Below, piece by piece: positions 28 to 21,806 of a stretch of 41,329 bases of DNA (positions within the stretch are counted from its first letter, which is position 1; every line of letters begins with the position of its first letter). The DNA is taken from UHGV virus genome UHGV-0077431, one strand, 5' to 3'. The DNA is from a virus. The notes beneath the pieces were generated by a model that was not told the origin of the DNA, did not search any database, and was given only the letters and a program-made list of their open reading frames with translations. A program made the position numbers and the translations under genes.

Positions 28-2442
28 TTGTCTGGAGATTCAGGGGGCCAGTCTAAATTTGGTGTAAGTAGTAATACTGAAATTAAAGGAGGGTATCAGT
101 ACATTGAAATGAATGGTACCGCAGAATACTCAGTATTAAATGACGGTTATCAAATTGTTCAAATGGGTGGCGCGGCAAACCAGACTACCCTCAATAATGG
201 TGTGCTACAGGTTTATGGCGCAGCGAATGATCCCACGATTAAAGGCGGGCGCTTAATCGTTGAAAAAGATGGGATTACCGTCCTTGCCGCTATCGAAAAG
301 GGAGGATTACTGGAGGTTAAAGAGGGGGGATTAGCGATTGCGGTAGATCAGAAAGCAGGCGGTGCTATTAAAGCAAGCACGCGGGTCATGGAGGCATTCG
401 GAACAAACCGTCTCGGTCAGTTCGAAATCAAGAATGGTATTGCTAACAATATGCTGTTGGAAAACGGCGGAAGTTTGCGAGTTGAAGAAAATGACTTCGC
501 TTATAATACTACTGTAGATAGTGGCGGCTTACTGGAGGTTATGGATGGCGGGACTGTAACTGGCGTTGATAAAAAAGCAGGCGGAAAATTAATTGTCTCA
601 ACGAATGTGCTGGAAGTGAGTGGTACAAACAGTAAAGGCCAATTTAGTATAAAAGATGGTGTGTCAAAAAATTATGAACTGGATGATGGTTCCGGGCTCA
701 TTGTTATGGAGGACACGCAGGCCATTGATACTATCCTTGATGAGCATGCCACTATGCAATCGCTGGGAAAGGATACTGGTACGAAAGTGCAGGCAAATGC
801 GGTATATGATCTCGGTCGATCAGACCAGAATGGAAGTATCACGTATTCCTCTAAAGCCATCTCTGAAAATATGGTTATCAACAATGGCCGCGCTAATGTC
901 TGGGCTGGCACAATGGTTAACGTGTCAGTCAGAGGGAATGATGGCATTCTTGAGGTCATGAAGCCGCAAATAAATTATGCACCCGCTATGTTGGTGGGTA
1001 AGGTAGTGGTTTCTGAGGGCGCTTCTTTTAGAACGCATGGTGCCGTGGATACCAGCAAAGCGGACGTTTCGCTCGAAAATAGCGTATGGACCATCATTGC
1101 CGATATCACTACGACGAACCAAAACACCCTCCTCAACTTAGCCAACCTTGCGATGTCTGACGCAAATGTGATTATGATGGATGAGCCAGTGACTCGTTCA
1201 TCAGTGACGGCAAGTGCGGAAAATTTCATTACGTTGACCACCAATACCCTGTCGGGAAACGGCAATTTTTATATGCGTACCGATATGGCTAATCATCAGA
1301 GCGATCAGCTCAACGTCACCGGTCAGGCAACAGGTGATTTCAAAATATTCGTGACGGACACCGGTGCCAGCCCGGCAGCAGGAGATAGCCTTACACTGGT
1401 AACAACGGGCGGCGGTGATGCTGCATTTACGTTGGGCAATGCCGGAGGCGTTGTTGATATCGGTACGTATGAATATACCTTGCTGGATAATGGCAACCAT
1501 AGCTGGAGTCTGGCAGAGAATCGCGCGCAAATTACCCCTTCAACCACTGATGTGCTGAATATGGCGGCCGCACAACCGCTGGTATTTGATGCAGAACTGG
1601 ACACCGTGCGTGAGCGTCTTGGTAGCGTAAAAGGCGTTAGTTACGATACGGCGATGTGGAGTTCGGCAATTAACACCCGCAACAACGTGACCACTGATGC
1701 GGGAGCTGGTTTTGAGCAAACATTGACGGGCCTGACGCTCGGTATCGATAGCCGTTTCTCCCGTGAAGAAAGCAGTACAATTCGCGGCTTGTTCTTTGGT
1801 TACTCTCATTCTGATATTGGTTTTGATCGCGGCGGAAAAGGTAATATCGATAGCTATACCCTGGGGGCTTATGCCGGTTGGGAGCATCAGAACGGTGCCT
1901 ATGTTGATGGGGTGGTGAAAGTTGACCGTTTTGCCAACACCATCCATGGCAAGATGAGTAATGGGGCAACAGCGTTTGGCGATTACAATAGTAACGGCGC
2001 GGGTGCTCATGTTGAGAGCGGGTTCCGTTGGGTTGACGGATTGTGGAGTGTTAGACCCTATCTGGCCTTTACCGGCTTTACCACAGATGGTCAGGACTAC
2101 ACGTTATCAAACGGCATGCGCGCTGATGTGGGAAATACCCGGATATTACGCGCTGAAGTGGGAACGGCGGTAAGCTATCACATGGACCTGCAAAACGGTA
2201 CGACGCTGGAACCCTGGCTGAAAGCCGCCGTGCGTCAGGAATACGCCGATTCTAACCAGGTGAAAGTTAATGACGATGGCAAATTTAATAATGATGTGGC
2301 TGGAACCCGTGGCGTTTATCAGGCTGGGATAAGGTCATCGTTTACCCCGACGTTAAGCGGTCATTTGTCAGTCAGCTATGGCAATGGCGCAGGGGTAGAA
2401 TCGCCGTGGAATACCCAGGCGGGTGTGGTCTGGACGTTCTGA
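28..2442 (+). CDS. Autotransporter adhesin (AIDA-I/Ag43/YejO-like), C-terminal ~800 aa; N-terminal signal peptide region not present in this frame
   Basis: Passenger-type degenerate repeats rich in G/N/T/V; C-terminal beta-barrel-like region ending in aromatic residues (VWTF) before stop at 2440-2442. Frame has a TGA at 19-21 and the track start at 28 is TTG, so the gene is 5'-partial or disrupted. Confidence 0.8.
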   Translation: MSGDSGGQSKFGVSSNTEIKGGYQYIEMNGTAEYSVLNDGYQIVQMGGAANQTTLNNGVLQVYGAANDPTIKGGRLIVEKDGITVLAAIEKGGLLEVKEGGLAIAVDQKAGGAIKASTRVMEAFGTNRLGQFEIKNGIANNMLLENGGSLRVEENDFAYNTTVDSGGLLEVMDGGTVTGVDKKAGGKLIVSTNVLEVSGTNSKGQFSIKDGVSKNYELDDGSGLIVMEDTQAIDTILDEHATMQSLGKDTGTKVQANAVYDLGRSDQNGSITYSSKAISENMVINNGRANVWAGTMVNVSVRGNDGILEVMKPQINYAPAMLVGKVVVSEGASFRTHGAVDTSKADVSLENSVWTIIADITTTNQNTLLNLANLAMSDANVIMMDEPVTRSSVTASAENFITLTTNTLSGNGNFYMRTDMANHQSDQLNVTGQATGDFKIFVTDTGASPAAGDSLTLVTTGGGDAAFTLGNAGGVVDIGTYEYTLLDNGNHSWSLAENRAQITPSTTDVLNMAAAQPLVFDAELDTVRERLGSVKGVSYDTAMWSSAINTRNNVTTDAGAGFEQTLTGLTLGIDSRFSREESSTIRGLFFGYSHSDIGFDRGGKGNIDSYTLGAYAGWEHQNGAYVDGVVKVDRFANTIHGKMSNGATAFGDYNSNGAGAHVESGFRWVDGLWSVRPYLAFTGFTTDGQDYTLSNGMRADVGNTRILRAEVGTAVSYHMDLQNGTTLEPWLKAAVRQEYADSNQVKVNDDGKFNNDVAGTRGVYQAGIRSSFTPTLSGHLSVSYGNGAGVESPWNTQAGVVWTF

Positions 2443-2451
2443 TAACAGAAA

Positions 2452-2485
2452 ATAAACAGGCCGTGATGTGTCGCGGTCTGTTTAT
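2452..2485 (+). terminator. Hairpin downstream of autotransporter stop (about 12 bp stem with one G-U, U-rich 3' side)
   Basis: Inverted repeat ATAAACAGGCCG / CGGTCTGTTTAT immediately 3' of the CDS. Confidence 0.4.
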
Positions 2486-2503
2486 CGAATTAAATGCAGA
2501 TAT

Positions 2504-2534
2504 AAAAAAACCAACCTTTACGGTTGGTTTTCTT
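2504..2534. terminator. Bidirectional intrinsic terminator; on the minus strand it follows the tRNA-Pro 3' end
   Basis: Perfect 10 bp palindrome AAAACCAACC-tttac-GGTTGGTTTT flanked by A-run on one side and T-run on the other. Confidence 0.6.
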
Positions 2535-2543
2535 GGGATTTTT

Positions 2544-2588
2544 GGTCGGCACGAGAGGATTTGAACCTCCGACCCCCGACACCCCATG
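2544..2588 (-). other. 3' 45 nt fragment of a tRNA-Pro gene (anticodon loop to CCA end): att core copy of the prophage (P-core-B' junction)
   Basis: Reverse complement reads CATGGGGTGTCGGGGGTCGGAGGTTCAAATCCTCTCGTGCCGACCA, matching the 3' part of enterobacterial tRNA-Pro(GGG) as I recall it; the 5' half of the tRNA is absent upstream. Confidence 0.75.
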
Positions 2589-2790
2589 TCACTGCGATAA
2601 ATCCGCTGTAACCCTTGTAAATACTGGTGTTGCGACACATTGGACTGTATATGCAAACAGTGCATTTTTTGCAAAATCCGCACTATACACATCAATGGGT
2701 TACAGCTGGTTTTTCCCCATACTTCTTCACACGACCTACGTCTCAATCAACACGAGACTGAAGATTCGTAAACGAATCGACATGAAAGAA

Positions 2791-2810
2791 ATCAACAAAA
2801 TTCTGTTGAT
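2791..2810. promoter_or_regulatory. Inverted repeat ATCAACA-n6-TGTTGAT upstream of the HTH gene (candidate operator)
   Basis: Perfect 7 bp arms; an extra ATCAACA copy at 2747-2753. Confidence 0.3.
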
Positions 2811-2885
2811 TTTCTGTCGGGAGCGTGTTAACTTAAAATGAGACCCAAGAGTAATGGGGGTCTTGGACACACTGGAGATACAACT

Positions 2886-3245
2886 ATGTTAACGCCGTTT
2901 GGTAAGACAGTAAGAAAAATGCGCATAGACCTGGGGCTTACGCTTAAAAGCATGGCTGAGGCTATGGGTATGACCTCGTCTTATCTTTCAGCAATCGAAA
3001 CTGGTAAAAGGGCGGTCACTAAACCCGTGCTTGATAGCATCATTGGCTATCTGAATGCGGATGAAAAACAAAAAGAAAAGCTTATCAGTGCAGCTCGTGA
3101 CTCTCAGCAATCAGTAGAGATCAGCTTGTCAGGTAAGAACGACCATGCTCGTGAAGTCGCAATTGCGTTCGCTCGTAGTTTTGATGAGTTAAATGAAGAA
3201 GACTTCCGGAATTTACGACAGATTTTGAATCGAAAACAGCAGTAG
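2886..3245 (+). CDS. XRE-family helix-turn-helix transcriptional regulator
   Basis: HTH signature (LGLTLKSMAEAMGMTSSYLSAIETGKR); ATG at 2886 has GGAG 9 nt upstream (track ORF starts at 2838). Confidence 0.7.
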   Translation: MLTPFGKTVRKMRIDLGLTLKSMAEAMGMTSSYLSAIETGKRAVTKPVLDSIIGYLNADEKQKEKLISAARDSQQSVEISLSGKNDHAREVAIAFARSFDELNEEDFRNLRQILNRKQQ

Positions 3246-3253
3246 GAGGCATT

Positions 3254-3775
3254 TTGAGCGGACAAGATTATCGTGTACCCCCGCAGAACCGCGAATCAAT
3301 ACGTTCTATCGTCAGATCTCTGCGGAGCACCTTCGGTATTACAGGTCTGATGTTTCCTGTTATGGAGGTGATCGAGTTCGCATTGCCTCAGTTGATCCCA
3401 GATTTTGAACTCCATATCGGTGGGATGAAGGAAATGGGGGAGACGCACGGTCTCACCTACCCACAGGAACATTTATTGATTCTTCGTGAAGACATTTACG
3501 AGGGTGCTTTGAATGGGGTAGGGCGTGACAGGATGACTGCCGCACATGAACTGGGTCATCTTCTCATGCACAGGAACATTGCTTTCGCGCGTTCTGCTCC
3601 AGGGGTAAAAATCCGCCCTTTTGAGAGTAGTGAGTGGCAAGCCAAATGTTTCAGTGGTGAGCTATTAGTACCAGCTATTCATGCCAATGTTCTGAAAGGT
3701 ATGAGTGCTGAAAATGTAGCTGAGGCATGCGGAGTATCATTAGTGGCCGCACGATATCAGTTAGACAAAATGTAA
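3254..3775 (+). CDS. ImmA/IrrE-family (M78) zinc metallopeptidase
   Basis: HEXXH motif (AAHELGHLLMH); AGGAGG 4-5 nt upstream of a TTG start at 3254, directly after the HTH stop. Confidence 0.7.
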   Translation: MSGQDYRVPPQNRESIRSIVRSLRSTFGITGLMFPVMEVIEFALPQLIPDFELHIGGMKEMGETHGLTYPQEHLLILREDIYEGALNGVGRDRMTAAHELGHLLMHRNIAFARSAPGVKIRPFESSEWQAKCFSGELLVPAIHANVLKGMSAENVAEACGVSLVAARYQLDKM

Positions 3776-13562: not shown

Positions 13563-13736
13563 ATGCGCGAAGTTAACCGAAGGTTCAAAGACCACAGAGG
13601 GATCCCCGTTCGGGTTATCCGGTGGGAGCCTGAAACGCGGCGTGTTATCTACCTGCGAGCAGGGTATGAGCACGAATGCTTCAGCCCACTTGAGCATTTC
13701 AGGCAAAAGTTCAGGGAGATAGAGGATGAGAGCTAA
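13563..13736 (+). CDS. Small hypothetical protein (57 aa, MREVNRRFKDHRGIPVRVIRWEPETRRVIY...)
   Basis: ATG with AGGAAGG upstream; protein-like composition; not in ORF track. Confidence 0.45.
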   Translation: MREVNRRFKDHRGIPVRVIRWEPETRRVIYLRAGYEHECFSPLEHFRQKFREIEDES

Positions 13737-13764
13737 CCCAATGAAAAAAAACTTAACTGAGAAT

Positions 13765-14145
13765 TTATCCTGCCAGGGCATTAATCCTCAATTTGATAGC
13801 CTTTTCTTCAACTTTGAACCTCTTTTTCAGGTCTTCGAGTTCTTTGGCGAGAGCAATGTATTGATCCGCAACTCCATATTGAGCAATCAGTCCGGTTGCC
13901 AGTTTAGCATCGGCGTTTTCTGGATCATCAACATCGATGATTTTTCCATATTTTCCGGTAATAACGGCAATACGGTGCTTGCACATCGTGCCCATTTCAC
14001 CAGCAATGCAAGTGCATTCTATTTCGAGGTTACCGCTCTGATCGCTGATGGTTACATCGTAAAAACCATCACCGCTGCTGCTGTTAGCCAAAAGTTGGTA
14101 GATCACGTTGTATCTCCTTATTTTTTTGTAGCGGTTAACGCTCAT
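13765..14145 (-). CDS. SWIM-type zinc-finger protein (126 aa) with C-terminal coiled coil
   Basis: CxCx(n)CxH motif (ECTCIAGEMGTMCKHR); GAGGT 5 nt before ATG at 14145; opposite orientation to flanking genes. Confidence 0.6.
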   Translation of the reverse strand: MSVNRYKKIRRYNVIYQLLANSSSGDGFYDVTISDQSGNLEIECTCIAGEMGTMCKHRIAVITGKYGKIIDVDDPENADAKLATGLIAQYGVADQYIALAKELEDLKKRFKVEEKAIKLRINALAG

Positions 14146-14436
14146 CCCAACCTCATTATTGATCATGCTTTATTCCAGGTATACACTGTCTCGGCAGCGG
14201 CAAAATCCGTTGCCGGGATTGGCGTCCTGGAATTGATTAAAGAGCACAACCGCGCTCTGGCGGTTTTTTTGTGCGAAATGCATTGCTACACCCTGATTAT
14301 GGTGGGGCGTGCAGGGGCATCGAAAGATGCGCCGGCTTCTTTAGTCACCGGTTACGCCAACCCTGCACGTCTCACCACCAATGAGATTGGCGTCTCTTGT
14401 GGTGAGTTGTTAAAACTGACTAAAGAGGCAGCCATC

Positions 14437-14982
14437 ATGGCTACGATCCCAACCCTCGTTCAACCTGAAATTTCCGTAATTAACGGTCAGGCCGTTACCT
14501 CCTCTCTGGCTATTGCCGACTTCTTCACTAAGCGTCACGATGACGTACTGAAAAAAATCCGCGCTCTGGAGTGTTCGCTAGAATTCACTGCCCGCAATTT
14601 TGCGGTGAGTGAATACACCGACGCTACAGGCCGCAAACTTCCCTGCTATCAAATCACCCGCGATGGCTTCGCGTTCCTCGCTATGGGCTTCACTGGTAAG
14701 CGAGCAGCACAGTTCAAAGAGGCATACATCACAGCCTTCAACAGGATGGAAAATGCGCTTCACGGGGCAAGTGATAATTTCTGCGCAGCGCACAATGCCC
14801 ACGTTGTTTACCTCTACATGTCTGAAATTCACCGCGTCTGGTTAGAACAACTTTATCCGATGTTGGTTTCTGTTCAGTCTCCGCTAGCTTCATCACTCTA
14901 CGACTACATCAACGATGGTGTATTCGTTGCTGGGTTGGTGGACTCGGAACTGAACAAAAAGCACAAGGAGGTGCGAAAGTGA
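14437..14982 (+). CDS. Rha-family phage regulatory protein
   Basis: N-terminal motif NGQAVTSSLAIADFFTKRHDDVLKKI; AAAGAGG 8 nt before ATG. Confidence 0.7.
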   Translation: MATIPTLVQPEISVINGQAVTSSLAIADFFTKRHDDVLKKIRALECSLEFTARNFAVSEYTDATGRKLPCYQITRDGFAFLAMGFTGKRAAQFKEAYITAFNRMENALHGASDNFCAAHNAHVVYLYMSEIHRVWLEQLYPMLVSVQSPLASSLYDYINDGVFVAGLVDSELNKKHKEVRK

Positions 14983-15845
14983 GCACTAAATTAACCGGCT
15001 ACGTATGGGATGGTTGCGCGGCGTCGGGCATGAAGTTGTCTAGTGTCGCGATCATGGCTCGCCTCGCTGATTTCAGCAGCGATGAGGGCGTGTGCTGGCC
15101 GTCCATTGAAACTATTGCTCGCCAGCTTGGCGCAGGGCCTAGCACGATCAGAACGGCAATCGCAAAGCTTGAAAAAGATGGCTGGCTCACGCGTACACAG
15201 CGCCGTAATGGTAACCGTAATGCGTCGAACGTGTACCGCCTGAATGTAGCGAAACTTCAGGCTGCCGCATTTTCTCAACTGTCAGATTCTGACACGTCAA
15301 AATCTGACGCATCAAAATTTGACGCCTCAAAAACTGACCCGTCGAAATCCGTCAAAAACGGCGGTTTTGACCCGTCAGAATCTGGCGGGGATCCGTCAGT
15401 AAAATCAAAACAAGATCCACAAGTAACTTCAAAACCCTCTTGTCCGGTTGCTGCGCAACCAGACCCTGAGGTTGTGATTACTGATCAGGCCAGACAGGTC
15501 TTGTCTTACCTGAACCAGACAACTGGCTCACGCTACCAGGTATGCAGTACGTCGCTGGAGAATATTCGCGCCCGTCTTCGGGAACAATTCACGGTTGATG
15601 ACCTGTGCCTGGTAGTGGATTACAAAAATGCCGATTGGCGTGATAGCGAGCAGGCGCAATACCTCCGCCCGGCAACTCTGTTCATTCCAAAAAACTTCCC
15701 TGGTTACCTGCAAAGCGCGACCAAATGGTCCAGTGCTGGCCGGCCTGAACGCGTTAACGGCAAATGGGAGACTAACTCAGCCAGCCGCGCAAACTTCCAG
15801 AGTGTTGATTACTCACTGCCAGAAAATTCGGGGTTCCGTTCATGA
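14979..15845 (+). CDS. Replication initiation protein (O-like; N-terminal winged helix, acidic Ser-rich linker, conserved phage C-terminal domain)
   Basis: GTG start with AAGGAGGTG at spacing 5, overlapping Rha stop; iterons inside the coding sequence. Confidence 0.75.
   Translation: MSTKLTGYVWDGCAASGMKLSSVAIMARLADFSSDEGVCWPSIETIARQLGAGPSTIRTAIAKLEKDGWLTRTQRRNGNRNASNVYRLNVAKLQAAAFSQLSDSDTSKSDASKFDASKTDPSKSVKNGGFDPSESGGDPSVKSKQDPQVTSKPSCPVAAQPDPEVVITDQARQVLSYLNQTTGSRYQVCSTSLENIRARLREQFTVDDLCLVVDYKNADWRDSEQAQYLRPATLFIPKNFPGYLQSATKWSSAGRPERVNGKWETNSASRANFQSVDYSLPENSGFRS
15290..15381. repeat. Iteron array (about six 13-mers TGACnCnTCAAAA at 15 bp periodicity) with adjacent A/T-rich tract: candidate origin
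   Basis: Direct repeats tgacacgtcaaaa, tgacgcatcaaaa, tgacgcctcaaaa, tgacccgtcgaaa, tgacccgtcagaa; A-rich 15395-15440. Confidence 0.6.
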
Positions 15846-16069
15846 TGACCAATAAATATTGCCAGGCGCTGGCGGCACTGCGTAGCAAACCAGCTCACGA
15901 ATTGAAAGAAGTTGGCGATCAGTGGCGGACACCGGATCTGCTTTTTTGGGGGATCAACGCGCTATTTGGTCCATTAGTTCTGAACTTGTTCGCAATATGC
16001 GGGGAGAGGCCGCGTGAAACTGGTCCTGCCTTTTCCTCCGAGCGTGAACACTTACTGGCGCGCCCCTAA
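15842..16069 (+). CDS. Short ORF (75 aa), possibly a truncated remnant (N-terminal WRTPDLLF motif reminiscent of phage Dam-family methyltransferases)
   Basis: ATGA overlap with replication gene stop; 3' end overlaps rusA by 56 nt. Confidence 0.3.
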   Translation: MMTNKYCQALAALRSKPAHELKEVGDQWRTPDLLFWGINALFGPLVLNLFAICGERPRETGPAFSSEREHLLARP

Positions 16070-16400
16070 CAAGGGGCCGCTGGCCGGTCGTCACCTCATT
16101 AGCGCTGATGGTCGTAAATACCAGAGCGCTGCCTGCGTGGCGATCATTGAGCAATTACGACGTCTCCCGAAGCCATCGACTGAACTGGCAGCGGTAGAAA
16201 TCACTCTGTACCCGCCGGATGCGCGCCATCGGGATATCGATAATTACAACAAAGCCCTGTTTGACGCGCTGACGCATGCGGGTGTCTGGGAAGACGACAG
16301 CCAGATTAAGCGCATGCTGGTGGAATGGGGGCCAGTGGTGCCGAAAGGAAAGGTTGAAATAACGATCAGCATTTACGAACCGGCGGGTGCAGCCGCCTGA
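16014..16400 (+). CDS. rusA: Holliday-junction resolvase RusA
   Basis: RusA pattern (LPFPPSVNTYW, RHRDIDNYNKALFDALTHAGVWEDDSQI); GTG start with GGAGAGG SD. Confidence 0.8.
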   Translation: MKLVLPFPPSVNTYWRAPNKGPLAGRHLISADGRKYQSAACVAIIEQLRRLPKPSTELAAVEITLYPPDARHRDIDNYNKALFDALTHAGVWEDDSQIKRMLVEWGPVVPKGKVEITISIYEPAGAAA

Positions 16401-16414
16401 TATGGAGAAATAGC

Positions 16415-17107
16415 ATGAATCAGTTAACCGCAAAGGGTGTTGTGACAATGTCCAGCCGTGAAATTGCCAGGCTGGTGCAGAGCAAACATGGTGATGTGAA
16501 GCGCTCAGCTGAGCGCCTTGAATCTGCTGGTATTTTAACCGCGCCGTTGGCGCACACCCCCTACGAACACCCGCAAAATGGGCAAACATACGAGGAGTAT
16601 TGGTTCAACAAACGTGATTCTCTGGTGATCGTTGCCAGGATGTCGCCAGAATTTACCGCCGCCGTTGTCGATCGCTGGCAGGAGCTGGAGAACAGTCAGG
16701 CCGTCAGTGTGCCACAAACATTGCCGGAGGCATTACGCCTCGCGGCTGATCTGGCCGAGCAGAAAGAACAACTCAGCCAGCAGTTAGCCGCTGCTGCACC
16801 GAAAGTTGAATTTGTCGATCGGTACTGTACTGCCAAAGGCTCAATGTCATTCCGCCAGGTAGCAAAGCTATTGCAGGCTAAAGAAACAGATTTCCGCTTG
16901 TTCCTCATTGAGAGCGACATCTTGTACCGGCTAGGCGGAGTGCTGACACCGCGGCACCAGCATATTGCGGCCGGGCGGTTTGAAGTGAAAACCGGCACTA
17001 CGAGTGAAACAAACTACGCATTCAGCCAGGCGCGTTTTACGCCCAAAGGCATCGAGTGGATCGGCGGCCTGTGGACGGCACACATCGCTAAGGGGCATGC
17101 CGCGTGA
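16415..17107 (+). CDS. Phage antirepressor (AntA/Rha-like N-terminus, KilA-C/ANT-like C-terminus)
   Basis: N-terminal VVTMSSREIARLVQSKHGDVKR; C-terminal FRQVAKLLQAKETDFRLFLIESDILY. Confidence 0.65.
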   Translation: MNQLTAKGVVTMSSREIARLVQSKHGDVKRSAERLESAGILTAPLAHTPYEHPQNGQTYEEYWFNKRDSLVIVARMSPEFTAAVVDRWQELENSQAVSVPQTLPEALRLAADLAEQKEQLSQQLAAAAPKVEFVDRYCTAKGSMSFRQVAKLLQAKETDFRLFLIESDILYRLGGVLTPRHQHIAAGRFEVKTGTTSETNYAFSQARFTPKGIEWIGGLWTAHIAKGHAA

Positions 17108-18165
17108 GAGGACTGTTTACAGCCGAGACTGTTCCGCGCCTGGGGCTTGTGCTGTTAAAGCCAGGTAGCGATCTGATGTCTCTGTTCCAGCAGGGGCGTG
17201 TGCTGGTGGAGCCTCAGCCAAAAAGTATGGCTGGGCTTCCGTCGGGGCTGGTCCCTGATGCGAGGCAGCCGCTGGCAGAAGATAAATCCCTCGAGGAATT
17301 CTTCACCGACGAGAGGGTTATCCGCGCCGCAGGCGGTTTATCCGCGTTGGACTCATGGTTAGAGCGCAACGTTAAGGAATGCCAGTACCCGCACGCTGAC
17401 TACCACCATCGCGAGCTGGTAACAATGCGCCACCCCCCAGGGTCAATGCTGCTCTGCTGGCATTGCGATAACCAGCTGCGCGAGCAGACCACCGCGGCGC
17501 TGGCAGAACTGGCCCGGCGAAATCTCATCAACTGGCTGATCAATTCGATCCTGTCTGCGCTTGGCTACAACACCGAGCGCGAACTATCCCTCGGTGAATT
17601 GTGCTGGTGGGCCGTTTATTCAGGCATTGCTGATGCAATCACGGAAAGGATGGCCCAGCATGCGCTTCGCTTACCGGATGAGCCGTTTTTATCCGTATAT
17701 CGAGAAAGTGACATTGTGCCGATGCCCCCTGCAAAAAGCATTTTGCAGAAGAAGGCCACCCCTGCGGTCACGGCTGCGAAATTAAAGCATGGAGCAAATC
17801 AGGAAGTGGCCTATGACCAGCCAAAGGTTCTGGCTCTGCATGCGGATCCTGAATCCCCTGAATCATTCATGTTGCGTCCAAAACACCGCAGGTGGGTGAA
17901 TGAGGACTATACCCGGTGGGTTAAAACCCAGCCCTGTGAAGGTTGCCGGCGGCCAGCGGATGATCCACACCATGTCATTGGTCACGGCATGGGCGGTACC
18001 GCCACTAAAGCCCACGATTTGTTCGTGATCCCTCTGTGCAGAGAGTGTCACGACAAATTACATGCTGATGTTGCAGCGTTCGAGAAAAAACACGGTACCC
18101 AGCTGGAGCTGCTATTCCGGTTTATGAATCGAGCGGTGGCGATCGGCGTAATAACAAAAGCGTAA
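17104..18165 (+). CDS. DUF968-like prophage protein with HNH-like C-terminal Cys/His motif
   Basis: C-terminal HHVIGHGMGGTATKAHDLFVIPLCRECHDKLH; GTGA overlap with upstream gene. Confidence 0.55.
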   Translation: MRGLFTAETVPRLGLVLLKPGSDLMSLFQQGRVLVEPQPKSMAGLPSGLVPDARQPLAEDKSLEEFFTDERVIRAAGGLSALDSWLERNVKECQYPHADYHHRELVTMRHPPGSMLLCWHCDNQLREQTTAALAELARRNLINWLINSILSALGYNTERELSLGELCWWAVYSGIADAITERMAQHALRLPDEPFLSVYRESDIVPMPPAKSILQKKATPAVTAAKLKHGANQEVAYDQPKVLALHADPESPESFMLRPKHRRWVNEDYTRWVKTQPCEGCRRPADDPHHVIGHGMGGTATKAHDLFVIPLCRECHDKLHADVAAFEKKHGTQLELLFRFMNRAVAIGVITKA

Positions 18166-18186
18166 TTGTATGGAGCGCTGAGCATA

Positions 18187-18879
18187 ATGAATTTACAAGA
18201 ACTGGAATTTACGCGGATTGAACTGCGCCGCGCGCTGGCGGATTTATCAGGCTCGACAAAAGGACAGCTGCAGGCGTTCAGTGAGCATCCACCAGCAGAT
18301 AAGAATAAATACCCCCGGCACCATCCTGAAATCGTCATGGAGGGTGGGGAAGGTTGTGGGTCAAAGGTTGTAACAACGCTGGCCACTCCATTTTATGTTC
18401 TTGAGACAAGGAGCCGTCGTCGACCTTTGCCGCCTATTAAAGATACGGAGTTCGCTTGTTCAGCATGGCGTCGTTCGGTCAATGGTCTGGGTGAGCATTT
18501 GCAGGCATGGGTGCGGTACTGCTATGGGTATGACCTTACTTTCCGGTACCAGACATTGATGTGCCAGCACGTGTGGGAACAGTTTCAGCGTCAGCATAGC
18601 GGCAAAAAAATACAGGGCCGCGTCACTAAAAAACTGGTAGGGCTTGTCTGGCTGGCGGCGCAAGAAGTTGCTGCCTCGCGTAATAACGATACCTATCAGG
18701 AGTATGCTGGTGCAGCTCTGGCGCGCATGGTCAGCGTTGAGCGTTCCACCTGGCTCAGAGTGTATTCAGGCCACTGGGCGGCTTTCAAAGCGTCGTTTGC
18801 TGAAATGGATAGCCAGGCACTAAGCGAAATTTTGTCACGGTACGAAGAGTACCAAGAACTGAAAGTGGCGGAAATGTGA
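18187..18879 (+). CDS. Putative late-gene antiterminator (Q-like)
   Basis: Last gene before the late promoter/terminator and lysis cassette; family call is positional. Track start is TTG at 18166. Confidence 0.5.
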   Translation: MNLQELEFTRIELRRALADLSGSTKGQLQAFSEHPPADKNKYPRHHPEIVMEGGEGCGSKVVTTLATPFYVLETRSRRRPLPPIKDTEFACSAWRRSVNGLGEHLQAWVRYCYGYDLTFRYQTLMCQHVWEQFQRQHSGKKIQGRVTKKLVGLVWLAAQEVAASRNNDTYQEYAGAALARMVSVERSTWLRVYSGHWAAFKASFAEMDSQALSEILSRYEEYQELKVAEM

Positions 18880-18904
18880 GGTAACTTTCACTAACTCCCT
18901 CAAA

Positions 18905-18970
18905 TGGGCTTGCAAAATGCAACAAAATGAGCCATATTTGAAGCTAATTTTATATTTTGTCATAATTATA
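18905..18970 (+). promoter_or_regulatory. Late promoter region (pR'-like) with candidate qut sequence
   Basis: TTGCAA (18910-18915) and CATATT about 17 nt later; alternative TTGAAG/CATAAT. Confidence 0.4.
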
Positions 18971-18975
18971 TCTAA

Positions 18976-18998
18976 CCTCGCCTCGGCGGGGTTTTTTT
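18976..18998 (+). terminator. Intrinsic terminator (tR'-like)
   Basis: CCTCGC-ctcg-GCGGGG stem followed by T7. Confidence 0.7.
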
Positions 18999-19077
18999 AT
19001 GCCTTTTGTATCTAAAGCTTGATGCAAAAATGAACCAGAGTTATCTGTGTGTCACACGATAAAAAAGGGGAAAAGGC

Positions 19078-19269
19078 ATGCAAAATCAACCTTATATGAC
19101 AGAAGAAGCAAAAGCGGTTTTTAACGAACTCAGCGCTTCACCAGCGACAGCTGGGGAAATTGCACAGAATACGCACCTAAGCCGAGAGAAATGCCAGCTC
19201 ATCCTGACGCAGCTGGTTATGGCGGGGTTATCAGATTACCAGTTTGGATGTTACAAACGCCTCCACTGA
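19078..19269 (+). CDS. Small winged-helix-like protein (63 aa)
   Basis: AAGGGGAAAAGG upstream of ATG. Confidence 0.5.
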   Translation: MQNQPYMTEEAKAVFNELSASPATAGEIAQNTHLSREKCQLILTQLVMAGLSDYQFGCYKRLH

Positions 19270-19419
19270 AGGGGGCATTCTGCTGTGGAAATGGGCGGCT
19301 GGTGGGTGTTGTAGCACCCAACCAGCCATTAGCTCATGCTTTCAGGTCACAAGCTAACCAAGGCCCACTGCTTTAGCGCAAAAGCATAGTGAGCCTATCA
19401 GAGTTACGCTTACGGATCT

Positions 19420-20472
19420 ATGAAAAATACTGTAAATATAAACAGTGTTGAGCTTATCAACGCTGACTGCCTGCAATACCTCGCTACCCTCCCAGATAAC
19501 ACCATCGACCTTATTGTTACGGATCCGCCTTATTTTAAGGTGAAGCCGAACGGCTGGGATAATCAGTGGAACGGTGACGCCGACTATCTTCGATGGCTTG
19601 ATATGTGTCTTGCCCAGTTCTGGCGAGTGCTTAAGCCTGCCGGCAGCCTGTATTTGTTTTCAGGTCACCGACTTGCATCCGATATTGAGATCATGATGCG
19701 TGAACGCTTCAACGTTATGAACCACATTATCTGGGCGAAGCCATCAGGGCGTTGGAACGGTTGTAATAAAGAAAGCCTGCGCTCTTACTTCCCCGCGACG
19801 GAACGCATCCTTTTCGCTGAGCATTATCAGGGGCCATATAATCCGAAAAGCGACGGATTTGCTGAGAAAAGCAACGAGGTCAAACAGCACGTCATGGCTC
19901 CGTTAATCACCTACTTTCGTGATGCACGAGCCGAACTGGGGGTCACGTCCAGGCAAATAGCTGACGCCACCGGAAAGAAAAATATGGCGTCTCACTGGTT
20001 CGGTACCAGTCAGTGGCAACTACCAAACGAGCAGGATTACGAAAAGCTGCAGGAATTGTTCACTCAGATCGCCATTGAGAAGCACCGCGCCTCTGAACTC
20101 AAAGCACCGCATCACCAGCTGGTGGCCACATGGCATTCGTTGAACCGGAAATACCTTGATCTGCTGGAAGAGTACAAATCTCTTCGGCGGCATTTCTCTG
20201 TGACAGTAGCCGTGCCCTATACAGACGTCTGGACACATAAACCCGTCCAGTTCTATCCAGGCAAACACCCGTGCGAAAAGCCCGCTGATATGTTGCGGCA
20301 AATCATCAACGCCAGCAGCAGGCCCGGCGATGTGGTAGCTGATTTCTTTATGGGCTCGGGATCAACTGTTAAAGCAGCCATTGAACTGGGCCGCCAGGCT
20401 ATCGGCGTAGAACTGGAAGAGGAACGTTTCAACCAGACGGTAAGTGAGGTAAGGCAGCTGGCAGGGGAATAA
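19420..20472 (+). CDS. DNA methyltransferase, beta-class amino-MTase (N6-adenine or N4-cytosine), orphan
   Basis: N-terminal DPPY motif (IVTDPPYF), C-terminal FxGxG AdoMet motif (FFMGSGST); no endonuclease gene adjacent. Confidence 0.85.
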   Translation: MKNTVNINSVELINADCLQYLATLPDNTIDLIVTDPPYFKVKPNGWDNQWNGDADYLRWLDMCLAQFWRVLKPAGSLYLFSGHRLASDIEIMMRERFNVMNHIIWAKPSGRWNGCNKESLRSYFPATERILFAEHYQGPYNPKSDGFAEKSNEVKQHVMAPLITYFRDARAELGVTSRQIADATGKKNMASHWFGTSQWQLPNEQDYEKLQELFTQIAIEKHRASELKAPHHQLVATWHSLNRKYLDLLEEYKSLRRHFSVTVAVPYTDVWTHKPVQFYPGKHPCEKPADMLRQIINASSRPGDVVADFFMGSGSTVKAAIELGRQAIGVELEEERFNQTVSEVRQLAGE

Positions 20473-20542
20473 AAGCTTGGGTCGCTATCGCGGCCCTTTT
20501 TATTACCTCAACTGGACACCCGCAACGTAGCGAGGTGAGAGC

Positions 20543-20758
20543 ATGTATCGAATGGAAAAAATCACGACGGGTATTGCATACGGCGCATCGGGTGGGGGGA
20601 CCGGATACTGGTTGCTTCAGCTCCTCGATAAAGTCTCCCCATCTCAATGGGCGGCCATTGGTGTGCTCGGTAGCCTCATGTTTGGTTTGCTGACGTGGTT
20701 AACGAGTCTGTACTTCCAAATCAAAGCGGATCGCCGCAAAGCTGCGCGAGGTGAATGA
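20543..20758 (+). CDS. Holin (phage 21 S-type pinholin), dual-start motif
   Basis: Similarity to S21 as recalled ([30 protein letters not shown]); Met1 and Met4 starts. Confidence 0.85.
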
Positions 20759-21294
20759 TGTCGAACAAAGCAAAGCTCAGCGTAGCAGTGCTGGCGCTAA
20801 TCGCGTCAGGGGCTTCTGCTCCACTCATTTTTGACCAATTCATCAGCGAGAAAGAAGGCAATGCGCTGGTGGCCGTTGTTGATCCGGGTGGGGTCTGGTC
20901 TTTATGTCACGGCGTGACCGTTATCGATGGCAGGCGTGTTGTTAAAGGCATGACGGCCACTGAGGAACAATGCCGGAAGGTTAACGCTATTGAACGCGAT
21001 AAGGCATTAGCCTGGGTTGATCGCAATATCAAAGTGCCTCTGACAGAGCCTCAGAAGGTGGGTATCGCATCCTTCTGCCCGTATAACATCGGCCCCGGTA
21101 AATGCTTCCCATCGACCTTCTATAAGCGCATCAACGCAGGTGACCGCATCGGTGCATGCGAGGCAATCCGCTGGTGGATTAAAGACGGTGGCCGTGATTG
21201 TCGTCTAACCAAAGGCCAGAAGAATGGCTGCTATGGCCAGGTTGAGCGACGGGACCAGGAAAGCGCGCTGGCGTGCTGGGGGCTGGACCAATGA
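20755..21294 (+). CDS. SAR endolysin (T4-lysozyme-type muramidase with N-terminal signal-anchor-release domain)
   Basis: Hydrophobic Gly/Ala-rich N-terminus; E-x8-D-x5-T catalytic pattern ([22 protein letters not shown]); ATGA overlap with holin. Confidence 0.9.
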
Positions 21295-21806
21295 AAATTA
21301 ATCCGGGTCTTATCGGCGTTGTCGTTATTGCTGGCCTTTCCGTCGCTCTCGTTAAGAGCTGCTCCGACGCCAGTAGCCTACAGAGCGATAACGACGTTCT
21401 GCGAAGTGACAACTCTATGCAGGGGCAGGTGATCGCCACCCAGGCATTCAACTTCAATCGATTCAATCAGGTTGCAGAACATGCCAACAGGCTTAACTCC
21501 CTGATCGACACCAGCACCGAAGAAACCGTAATTGAATACCGGGAGATACTCCGCCGTGAAAAAACCTGTGATCTGCCTGTTCCTGCTGACATTGCTGGTG
21601 GGCTGCTCGAATACGCGTACCGTTTACGTTCCAGCGCAATGCACGCCGATACCGACGGAATTAACGCAGCCGATGATAGTACCGCTGCCGCCGGCTCAAT
21701 AACGTACTGCCAGGCTGTGCTCTGGATTAAGCCGCTGCTGGCCGTGATTGAAAAGGGCAATAACAATTTCGCTGGAATTCGTCAAATAGAGAGCGAGCGT
21801 CAATAG
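21291..21806 (+). CDS. Rz i-spanin
   Basis: N-terminal TM helix, ATGA overlap with endolysin stop, embedded +1-frame lipoprotein ORF. Confidence 0.8.
   Translation: MKINPGLIGVVVIAGLSVALVKSCSDASSLQSDNDVLRSDNSMQGQVIATQAFNFNRFNQVAEHANRLNSLIDTSTEETVIEYREILRREKTCDLPVPADIAGGLLEYAYRLRSSAMHADTDGINAADDSTAAAGSITYCQAVLWIKPLLAVIEKGNNNFAGIRQIESERQ
21556..21702 (+). CDS. Rz1 o-spanin lipoprotein embedded within Rz
   Basis: MKKPVICLFLLTLLVGCSN (lipobox LVGC) then Pro-rich; GTG start; not in ORF track. Confidence 0.65.
   Translation: MKKPVICLFLLTLLVGCSNTRTVYVPAQCTPIPTELTQPMIVPLPPAQ

Follow-up and report, generated by a model that had tools for sequence, protein, structure and literature searches.

A conserved, structured mRNA leader precedes a predicted non-specific adenine methyltransferase gene in the late region of a lambdoid prophage

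What does a DNA methyltransferase (MTase) gene do between the late terminator and the holin gene of a lambdoid prophage, and how is it kept off until the late phase? The question is raised by positions 19078-20472 of the viral genome UHGV-0077431, the whole of which (41,329 nt) is here called the window. An initial annotation had described this part of the window as an orphan beta-class MTase gene preceded by a small HTH-like gene, at the site that stx or tRNA cargo takes in other lambdoid phages. We consider it likely that the locus is a late-operon methylase module, made up of a winged-helix (wH) gene, a structured leader and the gene for an MTase of the M.EcoGII family. The features are collected in Table 1.

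Table 1. Features of the late region and of the MTase leader, in window coordinates
Feature	Position	Strand	Basis or comment
DUF968 protein gene	17104-18165		Two genes upstream of the MTase gene in most loci; phrog_96 label 'HNH endonuclease'
Late antiterminator Q (phage 82/21-type family)	18166-18879	+	PF06323 E=2e-40; phrog_304 1e-71
Late promoter, pause and tR' region	18910-19000	+	Consensus scan
Putative promoter-like site	18938-18966	+	Consensus scan
Strong intrinsic terminator tR'	18974-18993 (stem), plus T7 run	+	Consensus scan; SfV annotates a terminator at the equivalent place
Small ORF, 63 aa, ATG start, winged-helix protein	19078-19269	+	phrog_331 3e-29; AF2 fold
GC hairpin GCCTCC/GGGGGC around the small-ORF stop codon, T-poor tail	19259-19280	+	Sequence and alignment
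Structured 5' leader of the MTase mRNA	19281-19419	+	Conservation, covariation, folding
P1	19291-19337 (P1a: 19291-19296 with 19332-19337)		
P2, alternative helix	19329-19334 with 19352-19357		
Anti-SD-like GGUCAC	19345-19350		
P4	GGUC 19345-19348 with GAUC 19415-19418; AAGC 19351-19354 with GCUU 19408-19411		
P3	19362-19395		
SD-like GAUC	19415-19418		Just 5' of the AUG; invariant
MTase ORF, 350 aa, ATG start	19420-20472	+	PF01555; phrog_67; PADLOC MTase_II
Terminator-like hairpin directly after the MTase gene, before the holin gene	20479-20505 (stem 20479-20496, plus T run)	+	SfV annotates a terminator at the same place
S21-type pinholin	20543-20758	+	PF04971 3e-31
Lysozyme, SAR-type	20755-21294	+	PF00959
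Rz-like spanin	21273-21806	+	phrog_214

Both open reading frames of the initial annotation, of 63 and 350 aa, were recovered at 19078-19269 and 19420-20472, and the MTase gene does lie between the late terminator and the holin gene. The order of the module is Q, tR', small ORF, a 150-nt gap, MTase gene, terminator-like hairpin and lysis cassette. The 3.1-kb segment from Q to the lysozyme gene is 99.9% identical to a partial, unannotated record named 'Escherichia phage Phi06_2987 S', and the window is closely related to prophages integrated beside yecE. Two extra methyltransferases of the closest annotated relative (L003) are absent from the window, which has Rha-like and replication genes there instead. 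Among window ORFs of at least 100 aa, the 350 aa frame is the only one with a [DNS]PP[YFWH] motif in a methyltransferase context.

By every sequence criterion, the 350 aa protein (METHYLTRANSFERASE) is predicted to be a beta-class N6-adenine DNA methyltransferase of the M.EcoGI/M.EcoGII family. It matches Pfam PF01555 (N6_N4_Mtase, E=4e-43, residues 29-340), phrog_67 'DNA methyltransferase' (3e-102) and the PADLOC model MTase_II for Type II MTases (3e-145). The motif order read from the translation is beta-class, with DPPY at residues 35-38 and FMGSGS near residue 310, in agreement with the class first proposed for it. NCBIfam matches to YhdJ and CcrM were far below threshold and orthology to either was rejected. 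No member of the family has a solved structure in the PDB, where the sole matches are distant beta-class relatives that align to the two core halves.

M.EcoGII is a 349 aa beta-class enzyme from a prophage of Escherichia coli O104:H4 (C227-11) that methylates A in any context, and in vitro it acts on dsDNA, ssDNA, RNA and DNA:RNA hybrids (PMC5778455). [quoted passage not shown] The window MTase aligns with M.EcoGII over its full length, including the central target recognition domain (TRD), with 76% identity (266/348), 86% positives and two gaps. The remaining 24% of residues differ. Like M.EcoGI and M.EcoGII, it has the beta-class order, a length of 349-350 aa, a prophage location (here a lambdoid late region of enterobacterial type) and no cognate endonuclease. 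It shares 85% of its residues with the reconstructed ancestor Anc289 and 71% with SUPREM/Anc284, against 70% between M.EcoGII and Anc284; the M.EcoGII and ancestor sequences were machine-read from the supplement of the SUPREM paper (PMC11551740), so that small errors in these values are possible. The window MTase resembles M.EcoGII and the tested ancestors more than these resemble one another, and so falls within the range of enzymes shown to be active.

Non-site-specificity has been demonstrated for M.EcoGII, Anc291 and SUPREM (PMC11551740), and the window MTase is predicted likewise to place m6A at adenines in essentially any context. A site-specific orphan MTase with a defined recognition motif would have the same generic beta-class architecture, with a central region of about 150 aa where TRDs sit. 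The residues that differ from M.EcoGII leave room for such an enzyme, and M.PflMI, the nearest site-specific relative named, shows that specificity can shift within the wider family (PMC11551740). However, when aligned with M.EcoGII the central region is no less conserved than the catalytic core, the window MTase is nearer to M.EcoGII and the tested ancestors than they are mutually, and homologs of 92-94% similarity in O111 STEC methylomes were listed as 'nonspecific' and left no trace in lysogens (PMC6602927). We therefore regard site specificity as improbable. Given membership of the M.EcoGI/M.EcoGII family, methylation of all adenines would be expected and a recognition motif is probably lacking. 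The absence of a new methylated motif on expression, put forward in the initial annotation as grounds for refuting a methylase, would thus misfire, as an active non-specific enzyme gives none. The methylome of a lysogen, also suggested there, is expected to be blank, and a silent lysogen would mimic one with an inactive gene.

A similar breadth of action is known from the alpha-class promiscuous phage adenine MTases (M.HaeV-type, with BA specificity), which are also phage-associated, nearly non-specific and presumed to serve anti-restriction (Drozdz et al. 2012, as cited in PMC5778455). Their motif order is the opposite one (FxGxG, TRD, DPPY) and their sequences are unrelated, making them analogous to the window MTase, not homologous.

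The MTase was said to be an orphan, and this held. None of six neighbouring proteins (the 63 aa ORF, DUF968, Ant and three ORFs past the lysis genes) matched a defence or restriction model in PADLOC. A Type II restriction-modification system was rejected, as there is no adjacent endonuclease, the neighbours are Q, the wH protein, holin and lysozyme, and PADLOC matched the MTase alone. The one candidate for an overlooked nuclease partner is the DUF968/HNH-like protein, on the strength of its phrog_96 label and of the presence of its gene two genes upstream in most loci. Yet Q separates the two genes, and in the related loci identity to the window protein runs from 50 to 100% for DUF968 but stays at 80-100% for the MTase, and Q is swapped for unrelated types, a mismatch which indicates that the two genes are no co-inherited pair. 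DUF968 (YdfU-type) genes are presumably also found in K-12 cryptic prophages that lack an M.EcoGII-type MTase. A non-specific methylase would, moreover, have no meaningful cognate nuclease, and we give a restriction-modification or defence system with a hidden nuclease hardly any credence.

For the function of the orphan, anti-restriction stands as probable, on the presumption of the authors who characterised M.EcoGII (PMC5778455). The relevant substrate could instead be host or phage RNA or ssDNA and not packaged dsDNA, a reading that draws on the in vitro activity of M.EcoGII on ssDNA, RNA and DNA:RNA hybrids (PMC5778455) and on RNA activity that varies widely among reconstructed ancestors (PMC11551740). 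We find this very unlikely: RNA activity is considered promiscuous and neutral by the SUPREM authors (PMC11551740), and late-operon timing suits the modification of DNA that is being replicated and packaged.

When the MTase was used to query phage genomes with tblastn, full-length homologs of 76-88% identity were found, among the matches listed, in SfV (orf48), phiP27 (L24), the cdtI phage, mEp460, many Stx2a, Stx2c and Stx2d converting phages, phage 1720a-02 and Citrobacter phiNP. Klebsiella, Hafnia, Serratia, Morganella and Providencia phages carry homologs of 61-83% identity, again among the matches listed, and Vibrio and Aeromonas phages were also among the matching records. Identity is 76-81% across SfV, phiP27, Stx2a_1447, 1720a-02 (75.7%), the cdtI phage and mEp460; for the cdtI phage and mEp460, the likeness is that of the MTase itself. 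The module and its position (Q, terminator, a 64-66 aa ORF, a 150-nt gap and a 350 aa MTase) are identical in SfV orf47-orf48, phiP27 L23-L24, Stx2a_1447 genes 25-26 and 1720a-02, and SfV also has a terminator after the MTase gene, as the window does. The same gene order was seen in EDL933, Nissle 1917, phiNP and the Hafnia, Morganella and Providencia phages. In 80 IMG/VR loci, DUF968 and a Q gene, the latter of several types, always precede the MTase gene, and lysis cassettes of several kinds follow it; Q and holin types likewise vary between the phages that bear the module. The MTase family and the placement of the module are thus already known, from M.EcoGI/M.EcoGII, SfV orf47/48 and phiP27 L23/L24.

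The suggestion that the module stands in place of stx or tRNA cargo was not borne out. In phiP27, Stx2a_1447 and 1720a-02, stx is downstream of the module, with tRNA genes before stx in phiP27 and Stx2a_1447, and in EDL933 tRNAs are downstream of the MTase module. As the module is upstream of the tRNAs or stx in these phages, it accompanies the cargo and is no substitute for it. The Stx phages differ from the window in having tRNA genes and stx between the MTase and lysis genes, where in the window the holin gene comes directly next. No tRNA was found in the gap between Q and the holin gene (S) of the window.

The small protein upstream is the counterpart of SfV orf47 and phiP27 L23, and the HTH-like character first ascribed to it was confirmed by a confident AF2 model of a winged helix (H-H-H-beta-hairpin, pLDDT 90.9). 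Its Pfam wH matches were below threshold (DprA_WH 1.4e-4, TrmB 6.6e-4), and Foldseek against the PDB returned generic winged-helix domains alone at E of about 1e-3, namely O-methyltransferase dimerisation domains, IclR- and MarR-type regulators and the RNA-binding wH of SelB. These generic matches give no support to a further candidate, an m6A-reading wH domain. The family comprises 254 clusters, all from Enterobacterales, with source names 'TrmB family' or 'DprA-like winged helix'. Restriction-modification controller (C) proteins share with it a small DNA-binding fold and a gene just upstream of a methyltransferase; they are XRE-type HTH dimers of about 80 aa that control R genes via C-boxes, whereas the window protein has a winged-helix fold that includes a beta hairpin, without an XRE Pfam match and without an R gene, and a C protein was rejected. 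The wH gene is directly upstream of the leader in 175/199 loci (88%), with other genes in its place elsewhere, and the protein falls to 45% identity where the MTase holds 81%. Missing from 12% of loci, the wH gene cannot be essential. The wH protein is a frequent, dispensable companion of the MTase.

Gene order suggests how the module would be expressed. In a lysogen, transcripts from the late promoter would end at tR' (18974-19000) and no MTase would be made; the further terminator-like hairpins that bracket the module may add to this silence. Upon induction, Q would render RNA polymerase terminator-resistant, and the module would be transcribed with the lysis and morphogenesis genes. Judging by its 76% identity to a characterised enzyme, the MTase would then move methyl groups from SAM to the N6 of adenines in almost any context, and progeny DNA may thereby resist many restriction enzymes of Types I, II and III on entry into the next host. 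As the enzyme harms the cell, its expression would have to be tight. This picture of tight control is supported by the upstream contexts of the leader, of which 71/115 unique ones have a terminator-like hairpin (a hairpin with at least 4 T among the next 8 nt) immediately before it; the hairpin at 19259-19280 in the window is a weak version, with 4 of 8 T.

Terminator-like hairpins also flank classical morons, and the module carries a gene of DNA-binding type, the wH gene. A true moron would have its own promoter and might regulate host or prophage genes epigenetically in the lysogen. Of the features of a strict moron, the window has the terminator-like hairpin downstream; a consensus scan found no sigma-70-like promoter between tR' and the MTase gene (19000-19420), though such a scan may miss weak or non-sigma-70 promoters. 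No methylation signature of M.EcoGI, M.EcoGII or their homologs is seen in lysogens (PMC5778455, PMC6602927), cells suffer from constitutive expression and the lowest-energy fold of the leader occludes the ribosome-binding site. All of this speaks against a moron expressed from the prophage, which we judge to be most improbable. An epigenetic role in the lysogen, the other function proposed in the initial annotation, is unlikely because genes of this family are silent in lysogens (PMC5778455, PMC6602927).

The gap between the small ORF and the MTase gene contains the element that has apparently not been described before. Conservation begins sharply at about position 19281 and about 140 nt are kept with or without the small ORF. 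Of 207 matches to the leader pattern, 205 have an MTase homolog downstream, always 52-53 nt away, and the other two lie at locus ends. One locus that appeared to have two leader copies (L155) was set aside as a chimeric scaffold with Ns. In 126 loci, with the comparison restricted to relatives whose MTase protein identity is below 85%, the leader is 85-89% identical, against 45-47% for MTase third-codon positions and 85-87% for first and second positions. Identity so far above that of third-codon positions points to purifying selection on non-coding sequence. Coding by the leader was rejected, as in relatives 1-nt indels and stops interrupt both a 61 aa ORF (19191-19376) and a short upstream ORF (uORF) at 19291. 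M.EcoGII-type genes (whose products start MLNT) share the conserved leader, and the window allele, which starts MKNT, is nearer to Anc289.

No sense-strand match to Rfam 15 was found in 19281-19419 (cmscan of 18800-20600, E<=1), and RefSeq has no annotation at the site. In a non-exhaustive search, no leader or sRNA described at this site was found in Rfam, in Murray et al. (PMC5778455) or in the EHEC prophage sRNA literature.

With a covariance model built from Escherichia-type leaders, 80 matches were obtained among 92 sources, and the leader was detected in front of MTase homologs in loci of Morganella, Providencia, Hafnia and Serratia type. In helices P1 and P3, both-sided changes occur at 21/30 pairs (12.9±1.3 in shuffles) and compensatory cells number 203 (45.6 in shuffles); these counts are inflated, as the model structure guided the alignment and the sequences are related, but 90.9% of P1/P3 cells are paired compared with 30-48% when partners are slid by 1-3 columns, which argues against an artefact. 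The G-U pairs are found on the sense strand only, and the structure thus belongs to the mRNA. Two further helices, P2 and P4, both compete with P1a. Covariation was seen at 6/8 pairs of P2 (70 cells versus 27.7) and in P4b (36 cells versus 14.3), and three P2 pairs are altered compensatorily in one Hafnia sequence. The folding z-score of the leader region is -2.9. The minimum free energy (MFE) fold, which combines P1a and P4, has -54.3 kcal/mol and the P2 fold, at -52.2 kcal/mol (+2.1), is near-isoenergetic. The SD-like GAUC, a complement of GAUC(A) at the 16S rRNA 3' terminus, is hidden in the MFE fold and mostly paired in the ensemble (probability of being unpaired 0.02-0.21).

The leader is conserved and structured, and from these two properties it most likely adds a translational lock on the MTase. 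In its lowest-energy fold, the anti-SD-like GGUC would pair with the GAUC before the AUG and block translation, while the P2 helix, about 2 kcal/mol higher, would release the GAUC. More tentatively, at somewhat short of even chances, we propose that the leader represents a cis-regulatory RNA of a class so far undescribed: a switch with two stable states that sequesters the SD and would gate translation of a cell-damaging hypermethylase. The trigger could be the MTase itself, by autogenous repression or by m6A in its own leader, or it could be the wH protein, translation of the short uORF or a small ligand such as SAM or SAH. Other SD-sequestering leaders, such as RNA thermometers, translational riboswitches and autogenously repressed phage mRNAs, likewise pair an upstream anti-SD-like segment with the ribosome-binding region, and the conservation of both mutually exclusive helices in the window leader is a further likeness. 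Unlike those families, the window leader has no Rfam match, and its switching is a proposal.

The leader might also be conserved for reasons other than switching, as a recombination linker, as a translated uORF (AUG at 19291, peptide MGGWWVL) or as a protein-binding or processing site without alternative folds. The left edge of its conservation coincides with a mosaic boundary, upstream of which the genes differ, an AUG or GUG is present at the uORF start in 78/80 sequences, and many unpaired positions are invariant. However, neither the peptide nor its length is conserved: a stop is found at codon 4 in two sequences, and 1-nt indels occur. A recombination linker would have no need of sense-strand pairing, and the G-U pairs confined to that strand, the many compensatory changes and the covariation of both competing helices weigh against these readings. 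We hold them to be rather unlikely.

The methylases of the M.EcoGII family are characterised, are sold as reagents and are routinely entered as 'nonspecific, inactive' in E. coli methylome papers. The leader precedes essentially every member of the family. It gives a concrete point of entry to the question of how a phage holds a genome-wide methylase silent before the late phase, and it matters to anybody who expresses enzymes of this kind. A 160-nt probe comprising the leader and the first 21 nt of the MTase gene matched 2635/5426 complete E. coli genomes, EDL933 and Nissle 1917 among them, with up to eight copies each. The element spans Escherichia- to Morganella-, Providencia-, Hafnia- and Serratia-type phage loci and is present in approximately half of E. 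coli genomes.

The methyltransferase (MTase) gene is preceded by a conserved and covarying leader of approximately 140 nt, to which two mutually exclusive and near-isoenergetic folds are available. A search of Rfam with this leader (19281-19419) matched no family. Among 5426 complete E. coli genomes, 2635 carry the leader together with the start of the MTase gene. A short uORF (see the table) starts from an AUG that sits at the 5' base of helix P1. Among relatives, this start codon is kept as AUG or GUG in 78 of 80 sequences. The uORF is as short as 3 codons in some of them and exceeds 30 codons in others, and the peptide sequence is not conserved. No convincing SD was found upstream of the AUG. 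Translation of the uORF would unwind P1.

A locus in IMGVR_UViG_2698536677_000006 (300-3500) includes the leader twice, in copies 3 kb apart, one of which is followed by an MTase N-terminus joined to a DUF968 ORF through a run of N. We rejected the duplication as biology and consider the locus a scaffold chimera.

Features of the MTase region and of the closest annotated relative, the E. coli MEI4O1-23 prophage (L003)
Feature	Position	Strand	Details
Promoter-like match	18938-18966	+	TTGAAG-17-CATAAT; within 18910-19000
Alternative promoter	18910-18938	+	TTGCAA-17-CATATT; candidate within 18910-19000
Conserved leader	19281-19419	+	upstream of MTase
uORF	19291-19314	+	MGGWWVL*
Holin	in 20543-21294	+	phage-21 S (pinholin) family
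Lysozyme	in 20543-21294	+	N-terminus hydrophobic (SAR-like)
L003 extra MTase 1	in 14257-17521		445 aa, 'phage N-6-adenine MTase'
L003 extra MTase 2	in 14257-17521		645 aa, DNA cytosine MTase

In addition to the late terminator tR', terminator-like hairpins lie on both sides of the MTase gene, at 19259-19280 and 20479-20505. The loop of the first contains the small-ORF stop codon. This hairpin is T-poor here, and its counterpart in many relatives is a proper hairpin with a T-run. Further upstream, only 8 nt separate the 3' end of the promoter-like match from the tR' hairpin. If the alternative promoter were used instead, CATAAT would be a sigma-70-dependent pause element at approximately +16 to +21, and a terminated RNA of approximately 55 nt would be expected, which would be analogous to StxS. 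The holin and lysozyme are the standard pairing of a pinholin with a SAR-endolysin.

Two further MTases are found in L003, and extra MTases are also present upstream of Q in Citrobacter phiNP and phage Eeyore. As Rha-like and replication-type ORFs stand at 13726-15845, where L003 has both of its extra MTases, we conclude that this is a mosaic swap. A 133-aa minus-strand ORF at 13765-14166 lies across the 5' portion of the long ORF at 13726-14982, in a region otherwise read on the plus strand.
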